DNA of 63,072 bases, taken from the IMG/VR virus record IMGVR_UViG_3300025660_000448, positions 1-63,072 of that record; one strand, written 5' to 3'. A program made the position numbers and the translations under genes. The notes beneath the pieces were generated by a model. That model made no database searches. It was not told the origin of the DNA and saw nothing but the letters and a program-made list of their open reading frames with translations. The first letter of the stretch is position 1. Every line of letters starts with the position of its first letter. Shown here piece by piece: positions 979 through 55,009 of this stretch. Source of the DNA: a virus (taxonomy: Duplodnaviria > Caudoviricetes).

Positions 979-1035
979 ATATGACCCTTTAAAGAACGAT
1001 TATCCAATTCAACGGGTCGTATATTACCAATTTTT

Positions 1036-1854
1036 TTACAACTGTTCAAGGTGTTTTTTAATTCTTTCTTGTGCTATCGCAGAATATTTTTCATCTAAAT
1101 CTATGCCAATATAATTCCTGCCAAGTTCTACCGCAGCAATCCCGGTCGTTCCGCCACCCTCAAATGGGTCAAGAACCAAGTCATCTTTGTCGGTGAATAA
1201 TTTAATAAAAAAAACTGGTAGGGATTTAGGGAACGCTGCTGGATGTTTTTTGTTTCCACATTCAGTAGCAAAATGCAACACATTAGTTGGATAAACTAGT
1301 TTCTTACCGACCCAATTTGACACATTTTTGCCAAACGAGCTACCAGATTTAGAATTATCTCTTTGTTTATCAGTCTTGCTTAAGTTTTTTAGACGACCTT
1401 CAGCCCAATCTCCAATTGGAACTCGCACGCTGTCTTGATTCATTTTGAATTTCTTTTGCAAATTAAACTGCAAACATCGTTCCCAAGAATCTCTAAAACG
1501 ATTAGGCCACTTTCCGGGGAAACAATTCTTCTTGTGCCACATCCATTCCTCCGTCCATAACCACTGTTTTTTTCGCATAGCTTGTATTAATTCTAAAACA
1601 TAAGTATGCCTTTCTCCAGAAACAACTTTTTCTTTGATGTTTATTATAAATGTGCCAGTAGGTTTTAAGACTCTTTTAATTTCTTCTGCTATAGGCAAAA
1701 ACCATTCTACATATTTATCAGCACATGGTCCAGAATATTGCTTTTTTCTTGCATCAGCGTATGGCGGAGATGTAATTACTAAATCTATAGTTTCTGAATC
1801 AACTCCTTTTAAAATTTGTAAGCAATCTCCAACATAATTTTCAATTTTATTCAT
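1036..1854 (-). CDS. N4-cytosine/N6-adenine DNA methyltransferase, beta class
   Basis: TSPPY catalytic motif near the N-terminus; HPAAFP and LDPFEGGGTT SAM-binding motif near the C-terminus. Confidence 0.92.
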   Translation of the reverse strand: MNKIENYVGDCLQILKGVDSETIDLVITSPPYADARKKQYSGPCADKYVEWFLPIAEEIKRVLKPTGTFIINIKEKVVSGERHTYVLELIQAMRKKQWLWTEEWMWHKKNCFPGKWPNRFRDSWERCLQFNLQKKFKMNQDSVRVPIGDWAEGRLKNLSKTDKQRDNSKSGSSFGKNVSNWVGKKLVYPTNVLHFATECGNKKHPAAFPKSLPVFFIKLFTDKDDLVLDPFEGGGTTGIAAVELGRNYIGIDLDEKYSAIAQERIKKHLEQL

Positions 1855-2624
1855 TTTATATCCATTATTTTTTTCATCCAGTTATCATTATCTTTTTTAT
1901 TTCCACAACTATTTTTTGCTATAGATTTCCATGCATCAATTGTTGATATAAAGATGTCACCACCATATACTTGCTCATATTCTTTCAATAATCTAACACA
2001 AGATAATTCAATCTCATTATTGAATATCTGTTCAAATTCTGTAGCTCCTACGGATGTTACATCTAAAATTTCTTGATAAAAATTCTCTTCACCATCAGTA
2101 ATAAGACACCAAAAATTCTGGCCACTAATTTGCACATCAGCATATTGAAGGTCTTTAGTTGGCGAATTACCACAACAAATACCCATAACTGATATTAAGT
2201 CATGGTTTGTGTCATTTTGATTTATAGTCTTTTTGGCCTTCTTAAATTGGTCTCCTTGCTTTGCTATACTTTGACTATTCCCCCATTTATCACTGCTTTT
2301 TATCGAAATTAGTAAACGACGTTTCCCTTTAAGTAAATCTAAATCAATGCCACTCATTCCTGTTTTTACATTTTCTCCATACGCCAAACTACAAACCTTA
2401 ATACTAATATCTTCAAAAAGCGAACCAAACTTAGTTTGGTTTGATTTTCCCATGAACCCATTAAGTGAATATTTTATTGCTTCTTTTGGACTACCACATA
2501 CAACAGAAGGAAGATATGGGTTTATCGTTAAATTTTTTATTCTTACCTCTTCTAATCGTTGCAATACTGATTTTCTAAATTTACATACTGCTACTCCGAT
2601 AAATTGTTTTATTTCGTTTTTCAT
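1851..2624 (-). CDS. Type II restriction endonuclease, EcoO109I/PmeII-like
   Basis: GIDL...ISIKSSDKWGNSQSI resembles the EcoO109I-family PD-(D/E)xK variant; 4-nt overlap with the downstream MTase. Confidence 0.65.
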   Translation of the reverse strand: MKNEIKQFIGVAVCKFRKSVLQRLEEVRIKNLTINPYLPSVVCGSPKEAIKYSLNGFMGKSNQTKFGSLFEDISIKVCSLAYGENVKTGMSGIDLDLLKGKRRLLISIKSSDKWGNSQSIAKQGDQFKKAKKTINQNDTNHDLISVMGICCGNSPTKDLQYADVQISGQNFWCLITDGEENFYQEILDVTSVGATEFEQIFNNEIELSCVRLLKEYEQVYGGDIFISTIDAWKSIAKNSCGNKKDNDNWMKKIMDIK

Positions 2625-2672
2625 ATAAAGTATTTTACTAAAAAAACATAATAAAGTCGAGAACTTAATTTT

Positions 2673-2795
2673 TCAATCATTAATTTTTATTTTTTTCTTT
2701 GGGACAAAATTAGAATAATCATTGTTTGGAAAATTTACAAAACAATTTTCAATACCAAATAAATTAATAGCATGATAATCATAATTCATAGCAGC
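2673..2795 (-). pseudogene. Displaced 3' end (AP2 domain C-terminal half) of the GIY-YIG endonuclease at 4116-4886
   Basis: Reads AAMNYDYHAINLFGIENCFVNFPNNDYSNFVPKKKIKIND*; joined to ...LGSFHDEVE it restores the AP2 pattern LGxFxxExEAAxxYDxxAxxLFG...NF. Confidence 0.85.
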
Positions 2796-2817
2796 AATGC
2801 TTTGTTATACATTTTTG

Positions 2818-3807
2818 TCAATTAGACTCAGTTTGTATCCTCTTATTTCTTATAAGTATTCTAAAATATGGGCACTTTCCATTGATCGACAAGTCCTTTT
2901 CATCATCCCCTTTTCTGAATTTAATTATTTCAAATTGATCGGGGTTAAATTTATGTAGGAATGTTATTGGTACCCCCATAGCTCCCTTGTAGTCTAATGG
3001 TATGTCTTTTGTCTTATTAACATTAATCCCATCATAATTATCATATTTCGGGTATTCAGTTTCGTTTCCAAAGTATTCCCTTGTAAGAACAATATCTTCG
3101 TGTCGTTTGTAAGTGTCTAAATTGGTTAGCCATAAGCAGTTATTAGGAGAAACTATTCTGTTTCCTAGACCATCAATCCGAGCCTCTGTTCCATAGAGTT
3201 CATAATGCTTAGGAACGATGAAACCAGAGACACCTCTACCAAGATTTATGCCCAACCACGCCTTATTTTCCTTGATTAGCTTGAAAATGTCTTTATAAGT
3301 TATCGCATTTACATTTCCAATTATTAAAAACTTTTTATCGTGTTTAACAAGTTGTTCAACATATTTCCTGAATAATGAAAACGGTGGATTAGTAACAACA
3401 ATATCTGACTTCTTCAGCAAATCAATGCTCTCCGAACTACGGAAATCCCCGTCTCCTTTAAAGTGCAAAATTTCAGGCACGCTTAGTTTATTTTTTTCAT
3501 CAGCTGTATTTCTATATTCAAAGAAAAAACCAGTTTCTTCACTCTCTTCACTAAATAAATCTCCCGATTGCTCTTTGTAGCAAGATGTTAATATCTTCTT
3601 GATTCCTAGATCTTCAAAGTTATCAGTAAAATATTTAAAGAAATTGCTTATTCTAGGGTCGTCACAATTGCAAAAAACAACTTTGTCTTTAAAGTGTGTT
3701 TTATAATGCTTCAATTCACTTTCAATATCGCAAAGCTGGGTGTAAAACTCATCACTTTTTGACTTCTTTGCTTTTTGCAATAATTGGTTTGTTGCGTTTC
3801 TTGCCAT
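2818..3807 (-). CDS. ecoRIM: EcoRI-family adenine methyltransferase (probably GAATTC)
   Basis: N-terminus MARNATNQLLQKAKKSKSDEFYTQ, GDGDFRSSESIDLLKKSDIVVTNPPFSLFR and C-terminal KDLSINGKCPYFRILI closely match M.EcoRI as I recall it. Confidence 0.93.
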   Translation of the reverse strand: MARNATNQLLQKAKKSKSDEFYTQLCDIESELKHYKTHFKDKVVFCNCDDPRISNFFKYFTDNFEDLGIKKILTSCYKEQSGDLFSEESEETGFFFEYRNTADEKNKLSVPEILHFKGDGDFRSSESIDLLKKSDIVVTNPPFSLFRKYVEQLVKHDKKFLIIGNVNAITYKDIFKLIKENKAWLGINLGRGVSGFIVPKHYELYGTEARIDGLGNRIVSPNNCLWLTNLDTYKRHEDIVLTREYFGNETEYPKYDNYDGINVNKTKDIPLDYKGAMGVPITFLHKFNPDQFEIIKFRKGDDEKDLSINGKCPYFRILIRNKRIQTESN

Positions 3808-3846
3808 TGATAACCTACCTCTATTTATGTCTTCGCTAACATTCGG

Positions 3847-4119
3847 TCACTTATTAGTTGTAATCTGGGTAAATAAATCACTTCCCAATGCTTTAAGGGA
3901 AGATATGGAAACCTCAATCATAATTTTAAACATTTCTTTGACATTCCACTTTTCTCCACACCCTTGAGAGTATATTGATGCCGCCTGAAGCATAATTGCT
4001 TTATCTTTATACTTGACGACTTTATTTACACATAAATTTTTATTTATTGGCATTCCATAATTTGCAGATGTCAATCTATCTAATCTGTTTAACATTCCTG
4101 AATTGTATTCAAGATTTAC
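3847..4119 (-). pseudogene. ecoRIR: 5'-truncated EcoRI-like restriction endonuclease (last ~90 codons only)
   Basis: Frame reads VNLEYNSGMLNRLDRLTSANYGMPINKNLC...IMLQAASIYSQG...SLKALGSDLF, matching the R.EcoRI C-terminus; catalytic N-terminal part absent. Confidence 0.88.
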
Positions 4120-4886
4120 ACTTCTACTTCATCATGAAACGAGCCTAAATTTATATCTTTATGATTAAAATTAATTCTAGATTGCCATGTTTTGCCTTTT
4201 CTTTTTTTAACTCCTTTATATTTATTTTTAGGAGGTTTTAATCTTATTGCTTTGTTTTTTTTACAAATAGATTCTTGAGATTGTTTTCGTCCCATTTGAC
4301 TACGAGATATTTTTCTTTTTGTTTCTTCAGTATGTTTTCTTTTACCACCACTCTTTTTGCCCAAATTTCCTTCCGATATTTTTCTTTTTGTTTCTTCAGT
4401 ATGTTTTCTTCCCAATTGAGCTTTTCTTCTAGCTTCTCTTACACTATTGGGTGTTCCAAATTTTAAATATCTTTCTTTTTGAGATTTGCTTAATTTTAAT
4501 TTAGATTCATATGTCCAAACTCTAATTCTATTTGCGTTTCCTATTTTGAGTTTTGCTTCTTCAGTATGCTTTCTTCCTCTTGGACTTCCGCCCGCTGTTG
4601 GTTGTATATTATACTGATGTCCCCATACTTGGTCTATCCAAAACTGCTCTCTTTCATCTAATTTATTTTCATCTAAAACTTCTTCTAATAAATAAAACAA
4701 AAAATTAATTTTCTCATATTTATTCCACGCTGCTTGCAAATGTTTATTATAATGTTTATTGTTTACAAGAAGTGATTTATGTTCCATAAACCTTTGGTTC
4801 ATTCCTTTATTTTTACAAACTTGTCCAACATATATCTTTCCATTAATCTTATTTTTAATCGCATATATTCCTTGAATTTTTTCCAT
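4116..4886 (-). pseudogene. GIY-YIG homing endonuclease with NUMOD3 repeats and AP2 domain, truncated by insertion
   Basis: GIYAIKNKINGKIYVG, EQFWID..YN, three KHTEE(T/A)K repeats, AP2 start KYKGV...W..RI...INLGSF cut at DEVE. Confidence 0.88.
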
Positions 4887-5037
4887 ATAATATTTTTTCC
4901 AAATCAGAAACATTGTATCTTCGATGCCCACCTAATGTTCTAACAGGGCAGAATTTACCAGACTTATCCCAATTCCTAAGTGTTGTTGTTGTTACTCCTA
5001 ATAATTCAGAAGCAGCTTTAATAGTTATAAGTTGCAT
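4855..5037 (-). CDS. Small MerR/excisionase-type winged HTH protein
   Basis: AASELLGVTTTTLRNWDKSGK..RTLGGHRRY, as in IS607-TnpA N-termini and BldC-like proteins. Confidence 0.8.
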   Translation of the reverse strand: MQLITIKAASELLGVTTTTLRNWDKSGKFCPVRTLGGHRRYNVSDLEKILYGKNSRNICD

Positions 5038-5057
5038 AATATTATATAGTAAATTTA

Positions 5058-6452
5058 TTATAATTTTTTATAAGATTTTATAATTTTATCAATAATTTTT
5101 GTTGTAGAAATTCCGTCAACAAGAGGAGCAAAGCATAGCTCATTAACATTTTCAGGTTTTTCCATTTTGCCTTGCCAATCCATTCCTTTTACTAAAACAT
5201 CAGGTTGAATTATTTTAATTATGTCATTCGGAGTATCTTCATAAAATGGTATAACATAATCAACAACATCCAATGCAGCTATCATTTTTATTCTTTGTTC
5301 TAATGGAATAATAGGTCTGGTGTTTCCTTTTAATCTTTTTACGCTTTCATCGGAATTAACCAACACCACAAGTTTATCTCCTTTGGATTTAGCAAACTCA
5401 AAGGTAGATATATGAGCAAAATGACAAAAATCATACACTCCATTTGTCATAACCAATTTAAAAGCCCTATCTTTCAAATCATAAGGGGATACAAATTTAG
5501 CTTTTATTGGGTCATCAATAGCTAATAATTCATAAGGAAGAACAGGCTTATTGTGTTTTTTCTGAACATATATCGACCCAGCCTTCCAAGCTAACTCTAC
5601 TGATTTTACGATATCTATACAATGAGTTTGGGTCATTGCTAAAAATGCCGCAAAACAATCACCAGCACCTATGACCGATTCACAGGGTACATGAAAATCA
5701 GGTGTGTATTGGAAATGACCATTAAGTGTCTTTCCAACAACACCTTTTTTGCCCTGAGTAATTACTACTGCTGGACACCCTAAAACAAACATAAAATAAT
5801 CACACTGCTTTTTCCAATCTTTCAATCCGCTAAGTTCATAGGCTTCTTTCTCATTTGGTTTGAATATGGAACATCCTTTCCACTTTTCTATCGGACCATT
5901 TTTAGGGTCTACAATAGTTAATAAATCTTCATTACACATCCAATTTAAATCACTATTAAACAATCCCTTTCCATAATCAGAAAAAATTACTACTCCAGAT
6001 GCCTCTTTACAGAATTTTTCATGCAACTCCCTTTGAAAATTTGTCAATGATTCATTCGATAGACCAAAATTATTAGATTCTATATCCCATCTACAAAGAG
6101 GGAAATTATCTTGATAAATTCTTTTTTTTACAGGATTTTTACCTTCCATTAAAATGCATGATTTAGAACTAATAGAAGATGAATTTAAAACGTCAAAACC
6201 ATGTGTGTCAATTAATGAATAGAACTCCACATCTACATTAAACTGTTCCATTTGACGACATACATTTCCTGCACCACCCGGAACTGCTATGTTTGGTGCA
6301 TTATTAGAAGATAGCATGACAGGTATAGGAAATTCAGGAGAAACCCTATCTGCCAGTACGTGAAAGTATTCATCTAATAAGTAATCTCCTACAACGGTTA
6401 TTTTAGACCTTGTAGAATCATTCATTTCCAAAAAGGTTTCTATATCTGTCAT
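5058..6452 (-). CDS. hldE: Bifunctional heptose-7-phosphate kinase / heptose-1-phosphate adenylyltransferase
   Basis: VGDYLLDEY, RVSPEFPIPV, GGAGNV, SDYGKG, GAGD (PfkB) followed by TNGVYDFCHFAH, NSDESVKRLKG..RPI, GISTTKII. Confidence 0.92.
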   Translation of the reverse strand: MTDIETFLEMNDSTRSKITVVGDYLLDEYFHVLADRVSPEFPIPVMLSSNNAPNIAVPGGAGNVCRQMEQFNVDVEFYSLIDTHGFDVLNSSSISSKSCILMEGKNPVKKRIYQDNFPLCRWDIESNNFGLSNESLTNFQRELHEKFCKEASGVVIFSDYGKGLFNSDLNWMCNEDLLTIVDPKNGPIEKWKGCSIFKPNEKEAYELSGLKDWKKQCDYFMFVLGCPAVVITQGKKGVVGKTLNGHFQYTPDFHVPCESVIGAGDCFAAFLAMTQTHCIDIVKSVELAWKAGSIYVQKKHNKPVLPYELLAIDDPIKAKFVSPYDLKDRAFKLVMTNGVYDFCHFAHISTFEFAKSKGDKLVVLVNSDESVKRLKGNTRPIIPLEQRIKMIAALDVVDYVIPFYEDTPNDIIKIIQPDVLVKGMDWQGKMEKPENVNELCFAPLVDGISTTKIIDKIIKSYKKL

Positions 6453-6491
6453 GCTATTATATTAGTAGTAAAGACTATATATTCCTGAACC

Positions 6492-9400
6492 ATGAGTAGA
6501 GAAATAAAGCAATCTAAAATCGAGAAAGATGGTAAAACAGTTATTGTTAATAAAATAGATGGGGCTATCGTTCCAAATGTTACAACCAATAATACATCTG
6601 AATCTTCCGCCACATCATCATCAGTAGCGGGGGGAACCCCAACAACTCCCATTCCTGTTTCTACCCCTACTGTGGCACAACCTACCACAACAAATAATAA
6701 TGGTATTCCAAAAACAAAAATAAAAGATGGCCTTGTTCCAAACATAACCGCACAATCTGAACTACCAGAGGCAACAGAAAATACAAATCTCCCCTCAATT
6801 TCTTCATCGGCCTCTACGGTTTCTGGAGCTTCTATACCAACAACTGATGAGGAAATAGAAAAAAAGAGACTTAGAAGTAAATTTGGTGTATATGACCAAA
6901 ATAAAATAAAAGATGGAATAATTCCACTTATCACAGCGGCCCAAGTTAATCCACCTAATGTTCCTCCACAAATATTACCACCAGATGTAAACCAATTTAC
7001 AGCCTTTACAAGTGCGTTAGCTGGAATACCTGAGCCATTAAGTATATTTGTTCCTTATATTGGTGCTTTAAAAGACGTTGATTTAGGGCCACAAAGTTTA
7101 AGCACCGATGTGTGTATAACAGCAGGATGTCTATCTGATGGAATTGTTACACTAACTGGCGGGGTATTTGATGTGTTCCCTCAAACGCCAACTGCTGCGC
7201 CATTCGCACAATACGATATAGCAAATAAAAAATATGTAGATGATGCTGTTTCTAGTGTGGATACATTCTTAGAGCTTACCGACACAATCAATTCTTACAC
7301 AAATACACGTATTCTTTTTGAATCCGGGGCGGCTGTAGTAGATTCTGCTAATCTTACATTTGATGGAACTACATTAACCGCTACGTCTTTATCTGATGGG
7401 ACTGCCACATTAACAAGTGGTGATTTAACAGGACTGACCTCTCTTGTTGTTGATAATATAACAATAGATGCAGCAACAATAACAAGTGATACAGGAACTA
7501 TCAGCTTAAATAATGATAATTTAACGACTACTGGTGCTATAGATTGTGCTGAAATATCCAACACTCTCGGAGATTTAAAGATAGAACCTGATATACAAGG
7601 TAACGTCATATTATTCTCGGATACTGACGTGGCCAGTGGAACAACAGATGGTAATCATCTGATTATCCATAGAAAAGCCGCTGAAGGCGATGCGTCTATG
7701 GATTTTTACGTTAATGAGTTTAATCAAGGAGTGTGGAGTGCGGGGGCTGGCATGGTGTTCACTCAGTCGTCTGGCATTATGTCTTTTGAAAATCAAACTG
7801 GTAACTACGCACATTTCCGATGTAAACAAGGCTATTATTTTGATATCTATAATACTACTGGCAATGATTTCTTTGTAATTAGGGATAGGGTTGGGTCTGC
7901 TGAAAGGTTTAAAGTATATCGTCAAGGACAAATCGAAATTCCTCAAGACAATGCTAAAATGGGATTTGGACTTACCACAACAGATTTAGAATTATATTCT
8001 GATGGAACTGATGGACACATTGACACAACTGGAGACTTGTTAATCTCTGGTAATATAACAACAACTGGCACAGGCACATTTGACGATGTTATCGTTAGTA
8101 ATCTAGCAATTGATTCAGCGGTTTATACTGATGGGTCTAGTCAACTAACAACAACCGCACCAACAAGTGGAACTATAGGATATTGGGATAGAACTGGAAC
8201 AATACTATCTCCTGCAAATGGTCCGGGCAGTGATGACATAACAACAAGTGGGGCTATAGGTATTGGTGCTATAGCTAGGATAGGCAACCTTGGCAGCGGT
8301 TACATAGAGGTGTATGATGATGCCAATACGTCTACTAGGAACTTCGGTGTCAGCGGTATCTATTTTGAGAATGCTATTGCTAGACTAAATAATTCTCACG
8401 TAAGAACAAGAACATTTAATTCTGCTTCAGACATTGACCTACAAGCTGGTAATGGTGCTGCATACGAGACTGTCGCTACCATACAATCAGAGACAGGCGG
8501 TGACCCAACATTCGATTTGTTAAAAGGAAGACTGATTGGTGATTTAAACGGTCAAAGCTATAATATAACAACAACTGGTATAGCAGGTGCTTCTTCTTTA
8601 GATTTAGGAGTTACAGGAGCAACGACTGGGGTTTTAAGAATGGATGGTTCTACTTCTGGAACCGTTACAATTCAGCCTGCTAATTCCGCAGGAACTTATA
8701 CATTAACTTTACCTACGGATGATGGTGACCCTGACGAATTTCTCCAGACTAACGGAAGTGGAGTCCTCACTTGGGCAGCAGGAGGGGGCATTACATTTGG
8801 CACAGATAATCAAATTCCTTATTGTAATGCCACTGGAGATGATTTCGATTACTCTGCGGATTTCACTTTCGATGGGTCGACTTTAACAACTACTGGCAGG
8901 CTGTCAGTGAGTTCTGGAACATTGGCTTTACCGGGAATATATTTTGATAATGATACTAATACCGGAATTTATAGAATCTCAGAAAATGCAATAGGATTAT
9001 CCGCCGGGGGAGTTGCATTAACTTGGAATGGAGGCAATTTAGAACTAACGAATGGCATATCTGCGTTTGTTGCTAGTGCTAGTGCTGCGTCAGCGGCAGA
9101 CCCTGCTTTCCAAATGAGTACACACACTTCAGGGATGTATAGAACAAACGATGGAACTTCTAATATACAGTTCGGGACTAGTGATTTAGGTAGATTATCA
9201 ATTGATGCTGCTGGCGACTTTGACTTCCAAGCTGGAGATATAACAACTTCTGGGACCATAACTTCTACAGATGGAACCGCTGGACAATCTTTAATAGCAA
9301 GTGGTTTAGTCGTTAACAATGATGGTAATGGTACAGATGATGATGATTTTAGAGCAGCCACAACAAGCGTATCAACTGCATTCGTTGTAGATGCTTCTGC

Positions 9401-12855: not shown

Positions 12856-13431
12856 CTAAACTATACAAATTATGGCATTATTCCTATACTCATCTAAAGT
12901 TTTTGCATTTAGATAACTCATACTACTTCGCAGTCCATTAATAAATCTTTGTATAACTGAATTTATAGATGGGCCTAAATCTACAAGATATTCCATACCT
13001 TCAACGTAAGTCGGTTTTTCTCCTTTATAATCCAACTGAGTAGAGTAAGAGGCCGCACCTCTAAACACTTTTTTAAGACGCCCATCTATTTTTACAACTC
13101 TTGCAGGACTTTGTGGACATTGAGCGAAGACGCCCCCTAGCATAGTTATATCAGACCACATAAGTGCTTTATTCATATCGGCAGGAGTTTTTATCCCTCC
13201 ATCAGATATCACAATAGCATCCCCAATTTTATTTTCATAAACCTCCATTAATGTACTTACCATTGGACGATAAATTCCCGTTTCAAATCTTGTCGTACAA
13301 GCAGAATTATGGACAACAATTTCATCTTCCACACAGAAAGAATGGTTGTTTTCTACTTCTAAATCATAAACGATTTCGCCTGTTGTGTTATATGAATCTA
13401 TTTTTTCTATTGGTATCAAGTCAAATTGCAT
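12856..13431 (-). CDS. IMPDH/GMP reductase C-terminal half preceded by 42-aa C-intein
   Basis: VYDLEVENNHSF...VVHN then SACTTR, ISDGGI, MLGGVFA, FRGAAS, GLRSSMSY. Confidence 0.93.
   Translation of the reverse strand: MQFDLIPIEKIDSYNTTGEIVYDLEVENNHSFCVEDEIVVHNSACTTRFETGIYRPMVSTLMEVYENKIGDAIVISDGGIKTPADMNKALMWSDITMLGGVFAQCPQSPARVVKIDGRLKKVFRGAASYSTQLDYKGEKPTYVEGMEYLVDLGPSINSVIQRFINGLRSSMSYLNAKTLDEYRNNAIICIV
13306..13431 (-). mobile_element. Split intein, C-fragment (42 aa)
   Basis: Block F VYDLEV, block G HN, +1 Ser. Confidence 0.93.
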
Positions 13432-14353
13432 TGTAATATTCCTGTAAACTATCTAAAACTCGTAAGTTTCCTTCTTTGACATCTTTTTCCCATATATGAA
13501 ACAATTTAAAATTATGTTTTTCTGCAAATTCAATCTTAGTCTTATCTTTATTTTTGTTTTTCATTTGCATGTCATTAAATTCTTTATATATCTTCGGATT
13601 ACCATGCCAATAATCACCTTGAACTTCCAATAAGATTCTTTTAGATTTACACCCGAAATCATATTGTTTATAATCTAATATAACAGAATATTCAAAATCA
13701 TTCAAGCCTCTTTTGATTAATTCATCTTTTACAATTTTTTCTAATTTGTTAATTTTATATTTCTCATGTTTAGTAGCTGCAACCTTTCCTGCTTTAGACC
13801 TTAATGCCTTATATTTTTCCGGGTCTTTTCTAAACAGTTTTTTTTGACTATTAGAAAATAATTTAGAACGAACGACCTTTTCTTCTTTAGTTAAAGACGC
13901 CTGATATACTCTATTTTTTTCTGCTATTCTATCTAAAATACATTGAGGATGCTTTTTGCCATAAAAAGGATTTTTTTCACCTTTAAATTTCCCCTTTAAA
14001 CTTTCAGATAGCTTTCTCAAAGATTCCTTCGTATGTTTTTTACCATAAAAAGGGCTTATGTTACCTTTATTTTTACTTCCTATTTTATCTTTTGTTTCTT
14101 GTGTATGTTTTTTACCATAAAAAGGGTTTCTGTTACCTAAGCTATTGCAATGGCAACATCTAGGAATTTTATTTATTAAATACCAACTAAGAGTTTTTAC
14201 AAAACGAAGCTTTTTACAATCTGGACATTCTGCCTCTATTTTTTTTATATCTTTAAATGTTATTTCAACACCATTTTCTAACAAATAAACATTTTCCCTT
14301 TTTCTAGAATTTTTACTTACAACTCTTGAACCGTTTAAAAATATATGATGCAT
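13421..14353 (-). CDS. Free-standing homing endonuclease (Zn ribbon + NUMOD3 + Vsr/DUF559-like nuclease)
   Basis: NPFYGKKH repeats x3; YDF...LLEVQGDYWHG..D..K...IWE. Confidence 0.88.
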   Translation of the reverse strand: MHHIFLNGSRVVSKNSRKRENVYLLENGVEITFKDIKKIEAECPDCKKLRFVKTLSWYLINKIPRCCHCNSLGNRNPFYGKKHTQETKDKIGSKNKGNISPFYGKKHTKESLRKLSESLKGKFKGEKNPFYGKKHPQCILDRIAEKNRVYQASLTKEEKVVRSKLFSNSQKKLFRKDPEKYKALRSKAGKVAATKHEKYKINKLEKIVKDELIKRGLNDFEYSVILDYKQYDFGCKSKRILLEVQGDYWHGNPKIYKEFNDMQMKNKNKDKTKIEFAEKHNFKLFHIWEKDVKEGNLRVLDSLQEYYNAI

Positions 14354-17655: not shown

Positions 17656-17831
17656 AAATAAAATGTGAAAAATACTATACTCCACAAGAAGTAGCTGAAA
17701 AATTTAACGTGAGCACAAATACCGTTGCTAGGTGGAGAAAAAATGGAAAATTATCTGCCCATAACATTAGCGAAAGAAAATTTATGTATTCTGAAACAAG
17801 TATAGAAAAATTCATCACGGGGAACAAATGA
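17649..17831 (+). CDS. Small excisionase/MerR-type HTH protein
   Basis: YYTPQEVAEKFNVSTNTVARWRKNGKL. Confidence 0.8.
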   Translation: MIKIKCEKYYTPQEVAEKFNVSTNTVARWRKNGKLSAHNISERKFMYSETSIEKFITGNK

Positions 17832-18934
17832 TAATAAATGGAAAAGAATACTTAAAACCTAAAGAAGAGCACCGTCTGACAAAAAGCAGTATAAACAAAA
17901 GAATCCTATCTAAAAATATACAACTAATAGGCAGCTTCAAAGGGGTCCATACAACATCTACATTCAAATGTTTAGTTTGCGGACATACAAGAAATATGGC
18001 AACAGTAAATGTTTTATATGAAAATTACAAATGCAAACAATGCAAACTAAACAAAGAAAAAGAAAATGTTAATAATAAACTTATGTCCAAGTCATTTAAA
18101 TTAACAGAAACATTTAAAGGAAACACAAAAAAACAAAATATAACATGTATGAAATGTAATTATATATTTCATGTAGCTCCAAGGAGAATTTTAGAAAGCG
18201 ACAGAAAATGTCCTAAATGCTCTACAAGGGCTGCTAGAACTCAAAAACGATTTGAAAATAAAATAAAAAAATTAAAAATAATAATGCTGTCTGCTTATAA
18301 AAATGGAAAAACTAAAGTAAAAATAAAATGCACAAAATGTAACACAATATCACAACCTACCCCAACTAACCTATTAAGACCGGGAGCCGGTTGTCGCCAT
18401 TGCTCGATAATTATACCATTAAATATTGCTAAAAAAAGATTATCGAAAAAGAAAATAGACATTCTCCAATATATTAGCTTCTCTGAAAAAGCTCTGTTGC
18501 GATGTGAGAAATGTCAATATATTTGGAAAGCGTCCCCAGACCAAATCTTTCATACCTCTGGATGCCCTGTGTGTAACGCTAGAAAAAACGAGAAATTGAC
18601 ACTTAAATACCTAAAAGAAATGTTAAAAAATATTACTATTGAATATCAATATAGCGTAAAATATGATATTAAAAAAAGATTTATTATAGATTATGCTTTT
18701 AAAACAAAAAATAAACAATATTACGTAGAATACAATGGGGTACAACACTATAAACCAGTTAAATTTTTTGGTGGCGAAAAAAGATTTAAAAAACAAAAAT
18801 CAAGAGATGAAAATCTTATGAAATATTGTATAAATAATAATATAATATTGATAGAAATAGATGGAAGAAAATATACAGATGATAAAATTAAGACTTACTT
18901 AAAAAATAAACTTTCTTCCTATAATTTAATCTAA
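17828..18934 (+). CDS. Putative homing endonuclease: CxxC zinc-ribbon repeats + C-terminal PD-(D/E)xK/Vsr-like nuclease
   Basis: Eight CxxC pairs; IDYAF...YVEYNGVQHY...RD..K.YC..NNI.LIEI; opposite strand to flanking genes. Confidence 0.8.
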   Translation: MIINGKEYLKPKEEHRLTKSSINKRILSKNIQLIGSFKGVHTTSTFKCLVCGHTRNMATVNVLYENYKCKQCKLNKEKENVNNKLMSKSFKLTETFKGNTKKQNITCMKCNYIFHVAPRRILESDRKCPKCSTRAARTQKRFENKIKKLKIIMLSAYKNGKTKVKIKCTKCNTISQPTPTNLLRPGAGCRHCSIIIPLNIAKKRLSKKKIDILQYISFSEKALLRCEKCQYIWKASPDQIFHTSGCPVCNARKNEKLTLKYLKEMLKNITIEYQYSVKYDIKKRFIIDYAFKTKNKQYYVEYNGVQHYKPVKFFGGEKRFKKQKSRDENLMKYCINNNIILIEIDGRKYTDDKIKTYLKNKLSSYNLI

Positions 18935-19827
18935 AGTAAACTTTCTAAATATGCCTTGCGTTGACGAACCTTTTCTTTTTTGCCTTCTGGCATATCTTCC
19001 TCTGCCAATAAGGTGTCACAAGCTTGCACAAAGAAAGGTAAGGCATCTTCGGTATTATAAACTAAATCTTCAGGATTTCTATTTTTTGTCATATTAATAA
19101 AACCCTTAAATTCATCAAAACAACTTCCGTAAATATGAAAACTAGAAGCTATATGAATGTATTCTCCAACATCAACACCGACCTGTTCCGCTACCATTTT
19201 TTGAAGTTCGGTTAGAGCAAATGCATTAAAGAAGGCACCACGATATGCGTCATTACTTCTAAAATCGACTGTCATGTTAAGTTTATCTTTTCCGTTTTCT
19301 CTTTGAACCCTAAACCATACCCTTTGAAGACATGCTGGGTCAGAAATGCCTAAATCTTTCCATACTTTCCACGTTACAGCCTGAGCACGTCTAGTATATC
19401 CATTTTGTTTAAGCAAATCTACACATTTATCTATTTGATTAATTATCGTTTCTTTAGGAGAAGAACTTCCAGTTAGAGCACCATATTCTACATCAGCAAT
19501 AGTCTCAGTTACATTATATTCAAATAATCTTTCGTGATAAGTGTATTCCCATTTTCCAGCATCAGGGTCTATCCAATGGTTATGAACTCCGTACAACATT
19601 TCTGAGCGGTATTTTTCTAAATCGTCCAAAGAACCGGGAAATGCACGATGTATTCTAGGTTCTGCCATTGGGTTTTTAACATGAATAAGGGCGGTAACGT
19701 CCCGGCTATTTGGGTCGTTTTCTTTATCATATTCAGTAGGGAAATTCTCGCCCTCTTCCCAACAAGCTAAAACAGCCTTTTCCCATGCTACAGGTAATGT
19801 ATCTTCTACAATGTGTATTGATTTCAT
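18931..19827 (-). CDS. thyA: Thymidylate synthase (archaeal-like ThyA family)
   Basis: YTYHERL, TRRA, PACLQ, FRSND, FFN (Asn = dUMP specificity), SFHIY; start reassigned to 19827. Confidence 0.85.
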   Translation of the reverse strand: MKSIHIVEDTLPVAWEKAVLACWEEGENFPTEYDKENDPNSRDVTALIHVKNPMAEPRIHRAFPGSLDDLEKYRSEMLYGVHNHWIDPDAGKWEYTYHERLFEYNVTETIADVEYGALTGSSSPKETIINQIDKCVDLLKQNGYTRRAQAVTWKVWKDLGISDPACLQRVWFRVQRENGKDKLNMTVDFRSNDAYRGAFFNAFALTELQKMVAEQVGVDVGEYIHIASSFHIYGSCFDEFKGFINMTKNRNPEDLVYNTEDALPFFVQACDTLLAEEDMPEGKKEKVRQRKAYLESLL

Positions 19828-19833
19828 AAAAAG

Positions 19834-19862
19834 ATTATATCTTAAACCAAATTGAATTACAA
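19834..19862 (-). promoter_or_regulatory. Sigma70-type promoter, likely leaderless thyA mRNA
   Basis: TTGTAA-17 nt-TATAAT-6 nt-ATG. Confidence 0.7.
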
Positions 19863-19866
19863 AACA

Positions 19867-19902
19867 AAAACCCACTTAAATCATTTTTTAAGTGGGTTTT
19901 TT
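19867..19902. terminator. Intrinsic terminator
   Basis: AAAACCCACTTAAA / TTTAAGTGGGTTTT with A/T tails. Confidence 0.8.
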
Positions 19903-53863: not shown

Positions 53864-55009
53864 ATGTTCTGGACGTGGACAAAAAAGGAAGACCAAAAAA
53901 AATACATAAGTTGGGGTAAGCCTCGTTCAATACCCTCAGACAGCTTTAGCGAAGAAGCTCCAGATTTTGAGGTTCCAATATATTCTGGATGTCCTATAAA
54001 ACCAGAAGAGTCAGTCGTGTATATGATGCAAGGTGATGCCACTCTTGGCATGGGCGATTCTATCTGGCTCATCTCTTTTTTGAGAGATGTATATAGACTT
54101 AAAGGTAGAGGGCGATGTAGATTGGACATATGTTCTTCTACCTCTATTAATAAATTTTATTCTAACTTTCTTCCTTCAAGTATGAATCTTAGAGAAGAGT
54201 ATATCACGAAAGAAGAATTTGATACGTTTACATATAAACTACCTGCCATGTATTATTGGAAAGATGAAGATGGGGCCGACAGGTCTTGGGTAGATAATCA
54301 AAGTATTATACAACGTTTATATAATAATGTAGGTATGGAATATAAAGGTCTTCCTGATTTCGGAGATTTCACAAATGAAGAGATATTATATCCAAACAAA
54401 AATTATTATGAAAGACTTAGTATAGACAATAATGATAAGTATGTTTTATTCCAATGGCATTCAAGTGGAGAGTGTAAAAACCTTCCTCCTAAAACAAATA
54501 TAAAACTAATTAAACATATATTAAAACAATATGGATTAAAAGTTTACGTTTTTGGTCGTTTAAACTGTTTAGATAGATTAGAAGAAATAGAAGGAGTAAA
54601 AAATCTTTCTGGAAAAATAAATGCAGAAGATGTTTTCTCTTTAGCCTATCATTCAGAATTTATTGTATCTCCTGATTCTGCTGGAATACATCTTGGAGAA
54701 GCATTTAGAATCCCATCTGTTGGTATTATGTCTACTCTCCCTCCTAAATATATTGCTCATAAATATAAAATACCAAGCTTCATGTTTGGTGCTGGATTTT
54801 GCGAACATAAGCCATGTGGTGTTGTAGCAAAACTTCCTTTAAATAAATGTCCAAAAGGAACAAAAAAATATTGTGCTGTTTTACAAGACATTGACTTAGA
54901 GTTATTCGATATGTGTGTGAGAAGGAGTGAAAGAAATAGATACCTATATCGCAGAACACCTGAAGTTCCTTTTTATTGTTCACAGAAATTACCTATAACA
55001 ATACATTAA
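53864..55009 (+). CDS. Glycosyltransferase family 9 (heptosyltransferase-like)
   Basis: LGMGD, SPDSAGIHLGEAF.IP, C-terminal C...PC...C...C cluster. Confidence 0.82.
   Translation: MFWTWTKKEDQKKYISWGKPRSIPSDSFSEEAPDFEVPIYSGCPIKPEESVVYMMQGDATLGMGDSIWLISFLRDVYRLKGRGRCRLDICSSTSINKFYSNFLPSSMNLREEYITKEEFDTFTYKLPAMYYWKDEDGADRSWVDNQSIIQRLYNNVGMEYKGLPDFGDFTNEEILYPNKNYYERLSIDNNDKYVLFQWHSSGECKNLPPKTNIKLIKHILKQYGLKVYVFGRLNCLDRLEEIEGVKNLSGKINAEDVFSLAYHSEFIVSPDSAGIHLGEAFRIPSVGIMSTLPPKYIAHKYKIPSFMFGAGFCEHKPCGVVAKLPLNKCPKGTKKYCAVLQDIDLELFDMCVRRSERNRYLYRRTPEVPFYCSQKLPITIH

Follow-up and report, generated by a model that had tools for sequence, protein, structure and literature searches.

A homing endonuclease gene interrupted by an EcoRI-type operon fragment

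The viral record IMGVR_UViG_3300025660_000448 (Duplodnaviria; Caudoviricetes), whose full 63,072 nt were analysed and are referred to here as the window, contains near its left end a homing endonuclease gene (HEG) that is split by a fragment of an EcoRI-family restriction-modification (R-M) operon. The fragment comprises the 3′ end of an endonuclease gene (R) and, 39 nt further on, a complete methyltransferase gene (M). All features of the split gene and of the insert lie on the minus strand, and the insert runs in the same direction as the helix-turn-helix (HTH) gene and HEG upstream of it and as the genes downstream. In the direction of transcription, the features are as follows.

4116–4886, minus strand: 5′ part of the HEG, with a GIY-YIG domain, three NUMOD3 repeats and three AP2 beta-strands (ORF, Pfam and PHROG evidence)
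2796–4121, minus strand: insert, a 1326-bp fragment of an EcoRI-family R-M operon (a 1-nt shift to 2795–4120 is possible), placed by the uninterrupted relative P0003 and by intact R genes
3847–4121, minus strand: 3′ stub of R, EcoRI family, about R.EcoRI residues 188–277, frame open (PF02963, 1ckq)
2818–3807, minus strand: M, a complete EcoRI-family N6-adenine DNA methyltransferase of 329 aa (PF13651)
2796–2817, minus strand: 22 nt of donor DNA after the M stop, forming the 3′ end of the insert (sequence reading)
2673–2795, minus strand: orphaned 3′ part of the HEG, with the AP2 alpha-helix and C-terminal tail (AAMNYDYHAINLFG...IND*), frame still open

The 5′ part of the HEG begins at an ATG at 4886, the start also used by an identical database protein (P0001), and its open reading frame (ORF) ends ...NLGSFHDEVEV before a TAA (4118–4116) that derives from the insert. 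The rest of the gene picks up at 2795 in a frame that is open from 2804 (...AAMNYDYHAINLFGIENCFVNF...IND*) and that reads, from 2795 to 2673, AAMNYDYHAINLFGIENCFVNFPNNDYSNFVPKKKIKIND*. These coordinates confirm those of a first-pass annotation made from the sequence alone, which had the GIY-YIG ORF stop and resume at the same places. Both a GIY-YIG domain (27.4 bits, cut-off 22.6) and NUMOD3 (53.3 bits, 3 stretches) were found in the 5′ part by Pfam searches, and PHROG searches matched it to homing endonuclease families (phrog_314, E 3.8e-27), which makes the gene a GIY-YIG/NUMOD3 homing endonuclease. An AP2 domain has the topology of three strands followed by a helix, and no such contiguous domain is present in the window copy: the 5′ part gave no AP2 match in Pfam at E ≤ 1, and the 3′ tail on its own had no Pfam match. 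AP2-type DNA-binding domains were reportedly associated with homing endonucleases, such as those of phages and cyanobacteria, by Magnani and colleagues in 2004. Intact relatives, of the I-TevI/Seg-like GIY-YIG/NUMOD3 kind, likewise combine GIY-YIG, NUMOD3 and a C-terminal AP2 domain; the window copy differs from them in being split, and its product would be without the AP2 helix and tail.

Uninterrupted relatives of the split gene

Relatives of the HEG were sought in 5.8 billion proteins. Two truncated forms were recovered: P0001 (256 aa), which is 100% identical and occurs on 28 contigs (longest 163,640 nt), and P0002 (233 aa, 3 contigs), which has the truncated end of P0001 and one NUMOD3 repeat fewer. 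A third protein, P0003 (301 aa, 88% identical), comes from a single metagenomic contig of 6187 nt and is uninterrupted. It reads continuously across the junction (...LGSFHDEIEAAMNYDYYAINLFGIENCFVNF..., or in a longer excerpt of the region ...NLGSFHDEIEAAMNYDYYAINLFGIENCFVNFPNNDYSDF...), and in tblastn its residues 1–260 match the 5′ part in the window at 88.1% identity while residues 260–291 match the 3′ part at 90.6% over 32 aa, placing the break at P0003 residue 259/260. The more distant P0004 (54%), P0005, P0006 and P0032 are contiguous across the break point too, so that the empty-site relatives anticipated by the first-pass annotation do exist as proteins. Because both the close and the more distant homologues have an uninterrupted gene, the insertion is, judged by protein comparison, the derived state and the contiguous HEG the earlier one.

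These natural homologues also served as proxies for the rejoined window protein in a scan for the AP2 domain. Full-length alignments to Pfam AP2 scored 22.0 bits for P0003, 32.3 for P0004, 33.7 for P0032, 18.3 for P0005 and 17.0 for P0006, and one of the five (P0032) thus exceeds the cut-off of 33.3 bits. In an AlphaFold model of P0003 (30-sequence alignment, mean pLDDT 85.3), strands at 230–233, 237–244 and 247–254 precede a helix at 257–272; with the junction at 259/260, the insert therefore takes the helix and the tail off the HEG. The earlier proposal that excision of the insert restores a canonical AP2 motif stands insofar as the intact relatives are contiguous and AP2-type, whereas "canonical" goes too far for the closest of them.

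Other searches for the empty site returned little. A scan of viral contigs for the HEG protein yielded 2 pattern matches but no relative, one of metagenome contigs for P0003 yielded 6 loci that were all distant (30–52% identity) and did not include the contig of P0003 itself, and megablast of window positions 1000–6500 found nothing among 50,697 phage records. No contig joint skipping 2796–4121 is listed in the four sequencing runs considered below (X7–X10); contigs lose rare variants, so this does not imply that the empty allele is absent.

As a separate observation on this gene, the number of NUMOD3 repeats is polymorphic at 4311–4460, a region of near-identical DNA repeats: P0002 is without one 23-aa unit that is present in the window HEG, and a contig joint in run X7 (4399 to 4456) falls within the same repeats.

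Junctions of the insert and their recovery in independent assemblies

For the left junction, codons were aligned with those of 12 intact R genes. Donor-type sequence at this point reads ...GGA AGR GTT GTA AAT CTT GAA TAC..., and the window reads ...GAT GAA GTA GAA G|TG TAA ATC TTG AAT AC.... HEG sequence extends to 4121 or 4122 and R homology begins at 4120 or 4121, an overlap of at most 1 nt, and relative to P0003 no HEG base was lost or duplicated at the junctions. Comparison with P0003 thus places the insert where the first-pass annotation had it, within 1 nt, and likewise agrees with its report of no obvious target-site duplication: neither such a duplication nor direct or inverted flanking repeats were found at 2795/2796 and 4121/4122. 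The insert holds the R stub and M and no recombinase gene, so that none of the marks of insertion by a transposable element or integrase (target-site duplication, terminal inverted repeats, recombinase) is present.

With neither duplication nor loss of HEG sequence, and with no flanking repeat or recombinase gene, the junctions point to illegitimate end-joining of a pre-existing fragment as the probable route of entry. At about codon 188, R abuts HEG sequence that is neither shortened nor duplicated, from which the fragment appears to have been truncated already when it entered. The order of events could instead have been that a complete R-M operon was inserted and then lost the 5′ two-thirds of R within the phage. 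Complete EcoRI-family R-M pairs do occur in 3 of the 44 evaluable viral loci surveyed below, and 5′ truncations at residues 83, 158, 187, 202, 213, 217 and 224 could be taken for stages of such a process, but the deletion would have had to end exactly at the original junction, with neither donor bases left over nor HEG bases missing, and an active nuclease would have been hazardous to unmethylated phage DNA with 19 GAATTC sites in 63 kb. We regard this sequence of events as very unlikely.

Further candidates for the history of the junctions were set aside. A 19-nt match of 79% between 4102–4120 and 2721–2739 is a chance AT-rich match that lies off the right junction. A break at a restriction cut in the AGCT spanning the junction was dropped, as AGCT is unavoided (194 vs 228 expected) and the empty site is seen as protein only. 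RNA-mediated capture via an M transcript was rejected because the insert starts 5′ of the homologues of the −10 hexamers described below, upstream of any such transcript start.

Words of window positions 2300–5300 were present in twenty public marine or seawater runs; ten of these hold at least half of the words, and seven, from four studies, hold 0.92–0.99. Four of the run rows are flagged as possible sources. Bridging of the junctions was looked at in X7–X10, which come from four other studies and of which none is flagged as a possible source. Mismatch-free contigs span the right junction (2795/2796) in X7 (2300–3178), X9 (2675–2911) and X10 (2700–2850), and the left junction (4121/4122) in the same runs (X7, 3182–4335; X9, 3767–4327; X10, 3737–4317). 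Because contigs from three independent seawater runs, each of a different study, bridge both junctions without a mismatch, the junctions are real and the locus is not an assembly chimera of a phage contig and a bacterial R-M fragment. The GC content of the insert is slightly above that of its immediate flanks, and metagenome assemblies can mis-join, but the truncated HEG end recurs on 28 + 3 contigs and the HEG halves on either side of the insert keep their order and reading frame, as would not be expected of a random mis-join. The probability that the arrangement is an artefact is negligible.

The captured methyltransferase and the endonuclease stub

The M protein matches the Pfam family EcoRI_methylase (PF13651) over profile positions 2–344 of 345 (E 7.7e-131; 436.9 bits, cut-off 26.4) and is 73.9% identical (241/326) to the product of the M gene of an E. 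coli EcoRI plasmid. Motif IV is an NPPF at residue 140, where the E. coli enzyme also has it, and 170 of the 172 columns that are at least 97% conserved among 119 relatives are retained, the exceptions being E148K and E173D. By its full-length profile match, its NPPF motif and its conserved residues, the protein belongs to the EcoRI-family methylases. A ribosome-binding-like stretch (GAGG/AGGT) lies upstream of the gene, and the identical protein was found on 31 contigs.

With a full-length ORF, the NPPF motif and 170 of 172 conserved columns in place, M looks functional. The predicted target is the adenine of GAATTC, given the 73.9% identity to an M that stands next to an annotated R.EcoRI and given the conserved motifs. 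Relatives at 80–88% identity come from Synechocystis, Halopseudomonas, Vibrio cholerae, Shewanella and Yersinia (names as given by the sources) and usually adjoin a full-length R. That such relatives occur in very different bacteria, usually beside a full-length R, argues for a conserved specificity.

The R stub, in the frame 4128–3850, matches PF02963 (EcoRI; E 7.9e-41) over profile positions 171–257 of 257 only, and aligns with residues 186–275 of the solved R.EcoRI chain 1ckq (E 6.8e-38). It corresponds to the final ~90 codons of an EcoRI-family endonuclease gene, within which an ATG opens an ORF of 82 codons (4095–3847), and is 89% identical to the best full-length relatives (278 aa) and about 70% identical to E. 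coli R in protein and DNA. The catalytic residues of R.EcoRI are D91, E111 and K113 of the PD...(D/E)XK motif. In the E. coli enzyme they lie far upstream of residue ~188 and hence in the part that is missing here. The stub is accordingly a gene fragment and not a member enzyme, and because the catalytic PD...EXK region is absent it is predicted to be inert as a nuclease. The family assignments of the first-pass annotation hold up in each respect: an EcoRI-like operon fragment in R-then-M order with R truncated and M intact, an 82-aa ORF that aligns to R.EcoRI, and catalytic residues in the missing part. At the E-values given for the stub and M, chance matches are out of the question. None of the three observations named in advance as refuting the first-pass annotation was made: both junctions are bridged in three runs, the 82-aa ORF does align to R.EcoRI, and the intact relatives have a contiguous AP2-type domain, if one under the cut-off in the closest of them. 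A dominant-negative peptide made from the 82-codon ORF was also considered and is unlikely: as the C-terminal part of an enzyme with one domain it would probably not fold, and its ATG is without a spaced ribosome-binding site.

The protein search found no M relative above 88% identity (best P0122–P0125), so the donor is unsampled. Several M and R matches share the same longest-contig sizes (3433 and 2077 nt, for example), which suggests intact operons on the same contigs. A 301-nt seawater contig in run X8 (record 20) is ~88% identical to M (window 2830–3072); its differences are almost confined to every third base, and therefore a related, selectively maintained M gene co-occurs in the same habitat.

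The divergence of the stub was divided by that of M, and the ratio compared with that of 44 loci that have a full-length R and M, each in a single high-scoring segment pair. The ratio is 1.22 in the window, against a median of 0.97 for the intact loci, one of which (1/44) is higher. The window value points mildly to relaxed constraint on the stub and does not leave the range shown by working genes. The R stub and the orphaned AP2 tail have both kept open frames. The insertion is thus later than the split from the P0003 lineage and not ancient; of the "recent" gain proposed initially, what stands is the position after that split (88% amino acid identity).

Proposed role in protection at GAATTC

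We consider the locus best explained, with a probability of about 0.78, as the capture of an EcoRI-type M fragment in a phage HEG, giving protection at GAATTC. A linear DNA of ~1.33 kb, extending from R codon ~188 to 22 nt past the M stop, would have been joined by illegitimate recombination, in the orientation of the host gene, into a dispensable free-standing HEG of a large marine phage, cutting its AP2 domain at the start of the alpha-helix. M is most likely expressed during infection. Its transcription might come from the promoter-homologous start of the stub or by read-through from the co-directional upstream HTH and HEG genes, the latter being possible because the insert is co-oriented with these and with the downstream genes. 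M would then methylate the GAATTC adenine on phage DNA and render the 19 sites in the window resistant to EcoRI-family nucleases, which bacteria commonly possess. As to the threat, a complete R adjoins M in 56 of 69 evaluable bacterial loci.

Usage of recognition sites in the window fits such a role. GAATTC occurs 19 times, against 21.4 expected from composition and 30.2 from a Markov model. GATC occurs 3 times (174 expected), CGCG is at 0 (26 expected) and CCWGG is at 0, the avoidance of GATC and CCWGG having been computed over the whole window. Many GC-containing 6-bp palindromes are at 0 as well (ATCGAT, 0 vs 7.5; TCCGGA, 0 vs 8.1), and AT-rich ones are near expectation. That GAATTC is tolerated while some other sites are purged fits methylation protection as weak evidence; the counts do not support it beyond that, because many other AT-rich palindromes are equally tolerated.

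Several observations weigh against the proposed capture and protection. E148, which is invariant in the 119 relatives, is K in the window M (codon 148 at 3366–3364), eight residues after NPPF; the substitution could impair M, could change its specificity or activity, or could be harmless. The observed/expected ratio of GAATTC under the Markov model, 0.63, is unremarkable. None of the twenty runs holding words of 2300–5300 is an RNA run. The closest intact relative, P0003, falls under the Pfam AP2 cut-off (22.0 vs 33.3 bits), and the empty site is seen as protein only, from one 6187-nt contig. The bridging evidence consists of contigs (separate assemblies of separate samples) and not of raw reads, and run X8 has no listed piece across either junction. 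Finally, IMG/VR classes the record as a provirus of 13% estimated completeness, with which a cellular location of the left end would be possible.

Some of these points, namely E148K and the undistinctive GAATTC frequency, would be expected if the insertion is real and yet neutral or decaying, with M inactive or unexpressed and the fragment hitch-hiking in a dispensable gene. The absence of promoter and terminator signal above shuffles at 2300–5400 (see below) would agree with this, as would the stub/M divergence ratio of 1.22 if constraint is relaxed on at least part of the insert. Decay is, however, hard to reconcile with a 329-codon frame that is intact in a genome of 35% GC, where random frames close fast, and with the retention of nearly all conserved M columns. 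The sequence also occurs at an identity of at least 99% in runs of several studies from 2016–2019, and orphan methylases of the EcoRI family are widespread (41/44 evaluable viral loci). We therefore think a neutral passenger unlikely and retain captured protection as the preferred explanation.

EcoRI-family methyltransferases in bacterial and viral loci

Loci were classed by tblastn according to the presence of R upstream of an EcoRI-family M, with the following outcome.

Bacterial loci: 80 in total, 11 set aside (short flank), 69 evaluable; full R upstream 56, 3′ R remnant only 4, other R fragments 3, no R upstream 6
Viral contigs: 56 loci, 4 set aside for a short flank and 8 for a partial M, 44 evaluable; full R upstream 3, 3′ R remnant only 3, other R fragments 0, no R upstream 38
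Full M behind a 5′-truncated R in viral contigs: L092, 3705–5044; L094, 534–1882; L095, 3401–4972

M is thus found without a complete R in 41 of the 44 evaluable viral loci, and the complete R-M pairs are those of L088–L090. Two of the six bacterial loci without R upstream have R elsewhere in the locus. Breakpoints in the remnant-only loci lie near residues 224, 213, 187 and 202 in bacteria (L017, L038, L048 and L076) and near 217, 158 and 83 in the viral contigs (L092, L094 and L095). Solitary EcoRI-family methylases are common in viral contigs, and the combination of a whole M with a 3′ R stub recurs.

Individual loci add some detail. In L092 a 71-aa ORF beginning MKLTFVGDVHGK precedes the R stub; by motif its start presumably resembles that of a metallophosphatase, and another gene may have been interrupted there. 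The R remnant of L095 retains the catalytic PD...EAK stretch. GIY-YIG HEG relatives, 29–33% identical to P0003/P0004, are encoded at 5495–6163 in L089 and L090 and at 2731–3414 in L107, ~0.5–1.3 kb from the EcoRI-family M genes, a hint that the two kinds of gene often occupy common variable slots.

Relation to known orphan methyltransferases

Among bacterial genomes, 174 orphan methyltransferases (24% of the orphans) were reported to adjoin degraded restriction endonucleases (Seshasayee et al. 2012; PMC3424554). The window locus belongs to that class, with an intact M beside a remnant of its cognate R, an arrangement read there as an intermediate on the way to a solitary methylase. The window locus differs from those bacterial orphans in that its state apparently stems from the insertion of a pre-truncated fragment, that it lies in a phage and that a pre-insertion allele is known.

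Lactococcal phages are known to have taken up methylases of host R-M systems. According to PMC4190342, phage phi50 took the LlaI methylase from plasmid pTR2030, orphan methyltransferases protect 936-type lactococcal phages against restriction, and one genomic slot of the 936 phages is filled either by a methylase or by an HNH homing endonuclease. What these cases share with the window is that a lytic-type phage obtained the methylase of a host R-M system but not its nuclease; unlike the window, they involve another methylase family, an identified donor and experimentally shown protection (PMC4190342). In the window, moreover, the methylase lies inside an HEG and not in place of one, and a stub of the nuclease was captured with it. 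Giant viruses also have orphan methylases, which have been proposed to defend them against R-M systems that co-infecting organisms carry (PMC7253447), and there too a solitary viral methylase is read as protection from cognate nucleases. The giant-virus examples concern another type of virus and other methylase families and were verified by single-molecule real-time (SMRT) methylomes, and the available text of that paper describes no insertion scar or empty site (PMC7253447).

No description of a methylase inside an HEG emerged from searches of the open-access literature, although a few word searches cannot prove absence. The locus is a clean example of an already known route to phage methylases and not a new mechanism, so that the earlier suggestion of a route to phage orphan methyltransferases is upheld in that the structure supports capture and is not new in kind. 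What it adds is a known target (the AP2 domain of an HEG), an intact pre-insertion allele and scar-free junctions. Solitary phage methylases are a major counter-defence against restriction, and their origins are usually inferred from phylogeny alone; here the whole record of acquisition is kept, with readable HEG halves, a close uninterrupted allele, scar-free junctions and a stub of the cognate nuclease, which identifies an R-M operon as the source. It also illustrates that an HEG can act as a harmless landing pad for captured DNA.

Promoter and antisense RNA homologues within the stub

In E. coli EcoRI, the M promoters PM1,M2 lie inside the restriction gene, as do the reverse promoter PREV0 and the gene ecoRIA for an 88-nt antisense RNA that lowers restriction-gene expression and acts in trans, as set out in PMC3141266. 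The hexamers given there are TGGAAG and TTGTTA (−35) and TATAAT and TATATT (−10) for PM1,M2, and TATGAT and TTGTAG for PREV0 (PMC3141266). They were placed by exact string search in ecoRIR of the E. coli plasmid locus L144, whose genes are annotated "type-2 restriction enzyme EcoRI" and "EcoRI family methyltransferase". The PM1,M2 hexamers fall at nt 555, 563, 577 and 588 (TTGTTA occurs twice, at nt 376 and 563, and the copy near the other three hexamers was used), and those of PREV0 end at nt 676 and 699. The R stub aligns with E. coli ecoRIR without a gap over nt 565–834 (to the stop) at 70.4% nucleotide identity, and the captured piece therefore begins within ~3 bases of the promoter block. 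The corresponding positions in the window are listed here.

4091–4121, minus strand: initial 31 nt of the stub, with the counterparts of three of the four PM1,M2 hexamers
4121–4116: TTGTTA is GTGTAA in the window
4107–4102: TATAAT is TACAAT in the window
4096–4091: TATATT is AATGTT in the window
Just outside the insert: position of TGGAAG
4013–4008: TATGAT (PREV0) is TATACT in the window
3990–3985: TTGTAG (PREV0) is CTGAAG in the window

Because all of these hexamers lie in coding sequence, similarity of this degree is expected from protein constraint alone. Scans of 2300–5400 found 13 promoter-like sites (shuffles, 17.2 ± 4.3) and 2 terminator-like sites (shuffles, 0.9), neither being above chance. 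The insert has the R-then-M order of the E. coli EcoRI operon, and its stub spans the homologue of the promoter/antisense block (ecoRIR nt 563–699). Unlike that operon, the window has only the last third of R, with the catalytic residues absent, in a phage gene and not on a plasmid, and its hexamers are degenerate, with one −35 position outside the insert and a function there that is putative.

A tentative and rather doubtful idea is that the stub is not junk and that the captured piece may be a self-contained transcription unit for M, with a candidate promoter and a candidate antisense RNA. Were this so, the phage would bring its own promoter for early expression of M, and the stub antisense RNA might damp the EcoRI-type nuclease gene of a host, making the insert a two-pronged anti-restriction cassette. 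It would also explain why 3′ R stubs are retained beside EcoRI-family orphan methylases; the promoter-homologous stretch is present in 4 of the 8 remnant-only cases, the window being one of the eight.

Genome context

The genes around the split HEG are the following.

5037–4855, minus strand: MerR/excisionase-type HTH gene, 60 aa
2624–1851, minus strand: EcoO109I-type endonuclease (PF14511, E 3.5e-35)
1854–1036, minus strand: N6/N4 methylase, with a 4-nt overlap with the EcoO109I-type gene (PF01555, E 2.5e-43)
978–1, minus strand: C5 cytosine methylase (PF00145, E 1e-63)

Directly downstream of the split gene, the EcoO109I-type genes look like a complete second R-M system. RGGNCCY, which we take to be the EcoO109I site, occurs once in the window (15 expected), while GGNCC overall is unavoided (69 vs 60), which suggests that exactly the RGGNCCY specificity acts on the genome.

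With methylases, a restriction enzyme and an excisionase-like HTH gene, the left 5 kb form an island that could be bacterial DNA, either provirus flank or cargo, in which M serves a cell. The provirus class and low estimated completeness of the record would suit this, and so would the lack of any capsid, portal or clear terminase match: among the 19 larger ORFs scanned with PHROGs (43 ORFs of at least 200 aa are listed), no capsid or portal match and one weak partial match to a terminase family were obtained. Set against it are the phage-type replication module (family A DNA polymerase, DnaB-like helicase, RecA/UvsX-like protein, a gp32-like single-stranded DNA-binding protein of phrog_1192, and thymidylate synthase) and two further homing endonucleases in the window, and the membership of the interrupted gene in phage HEG families, with 353 matching phage records. 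The genes from 5037 to 1 are co-directional and tightly packed, and the avoidance of GATC and CCWGG is extreme, as measured window-wide and not for the left island separately. A bacterial origin of the left end is quite improbable on this evidence, and we read the window as part of a large marine phage. A DEAD/ResIII helicase is also encoded, and a tRNA scan of the window found no tRNA.

The window is rich in homing endonucleases. Further homing-endonuclease-like genes, of the HNH type (phrog_559), lie at 13421–14353 and 17828–18934, and the second adjoins a thymidylate synthase gene (18931–19875). The thymidylate synthase gene is a classic homing site in T4-like phages. An HldE-like bifunctional heptose kinase/adenylyltransferase (phrog_7878; 5058–6452) and a family 9 heptosyltransferase (53864–55009) suggest that the virus may modify heptose-containing glycans.

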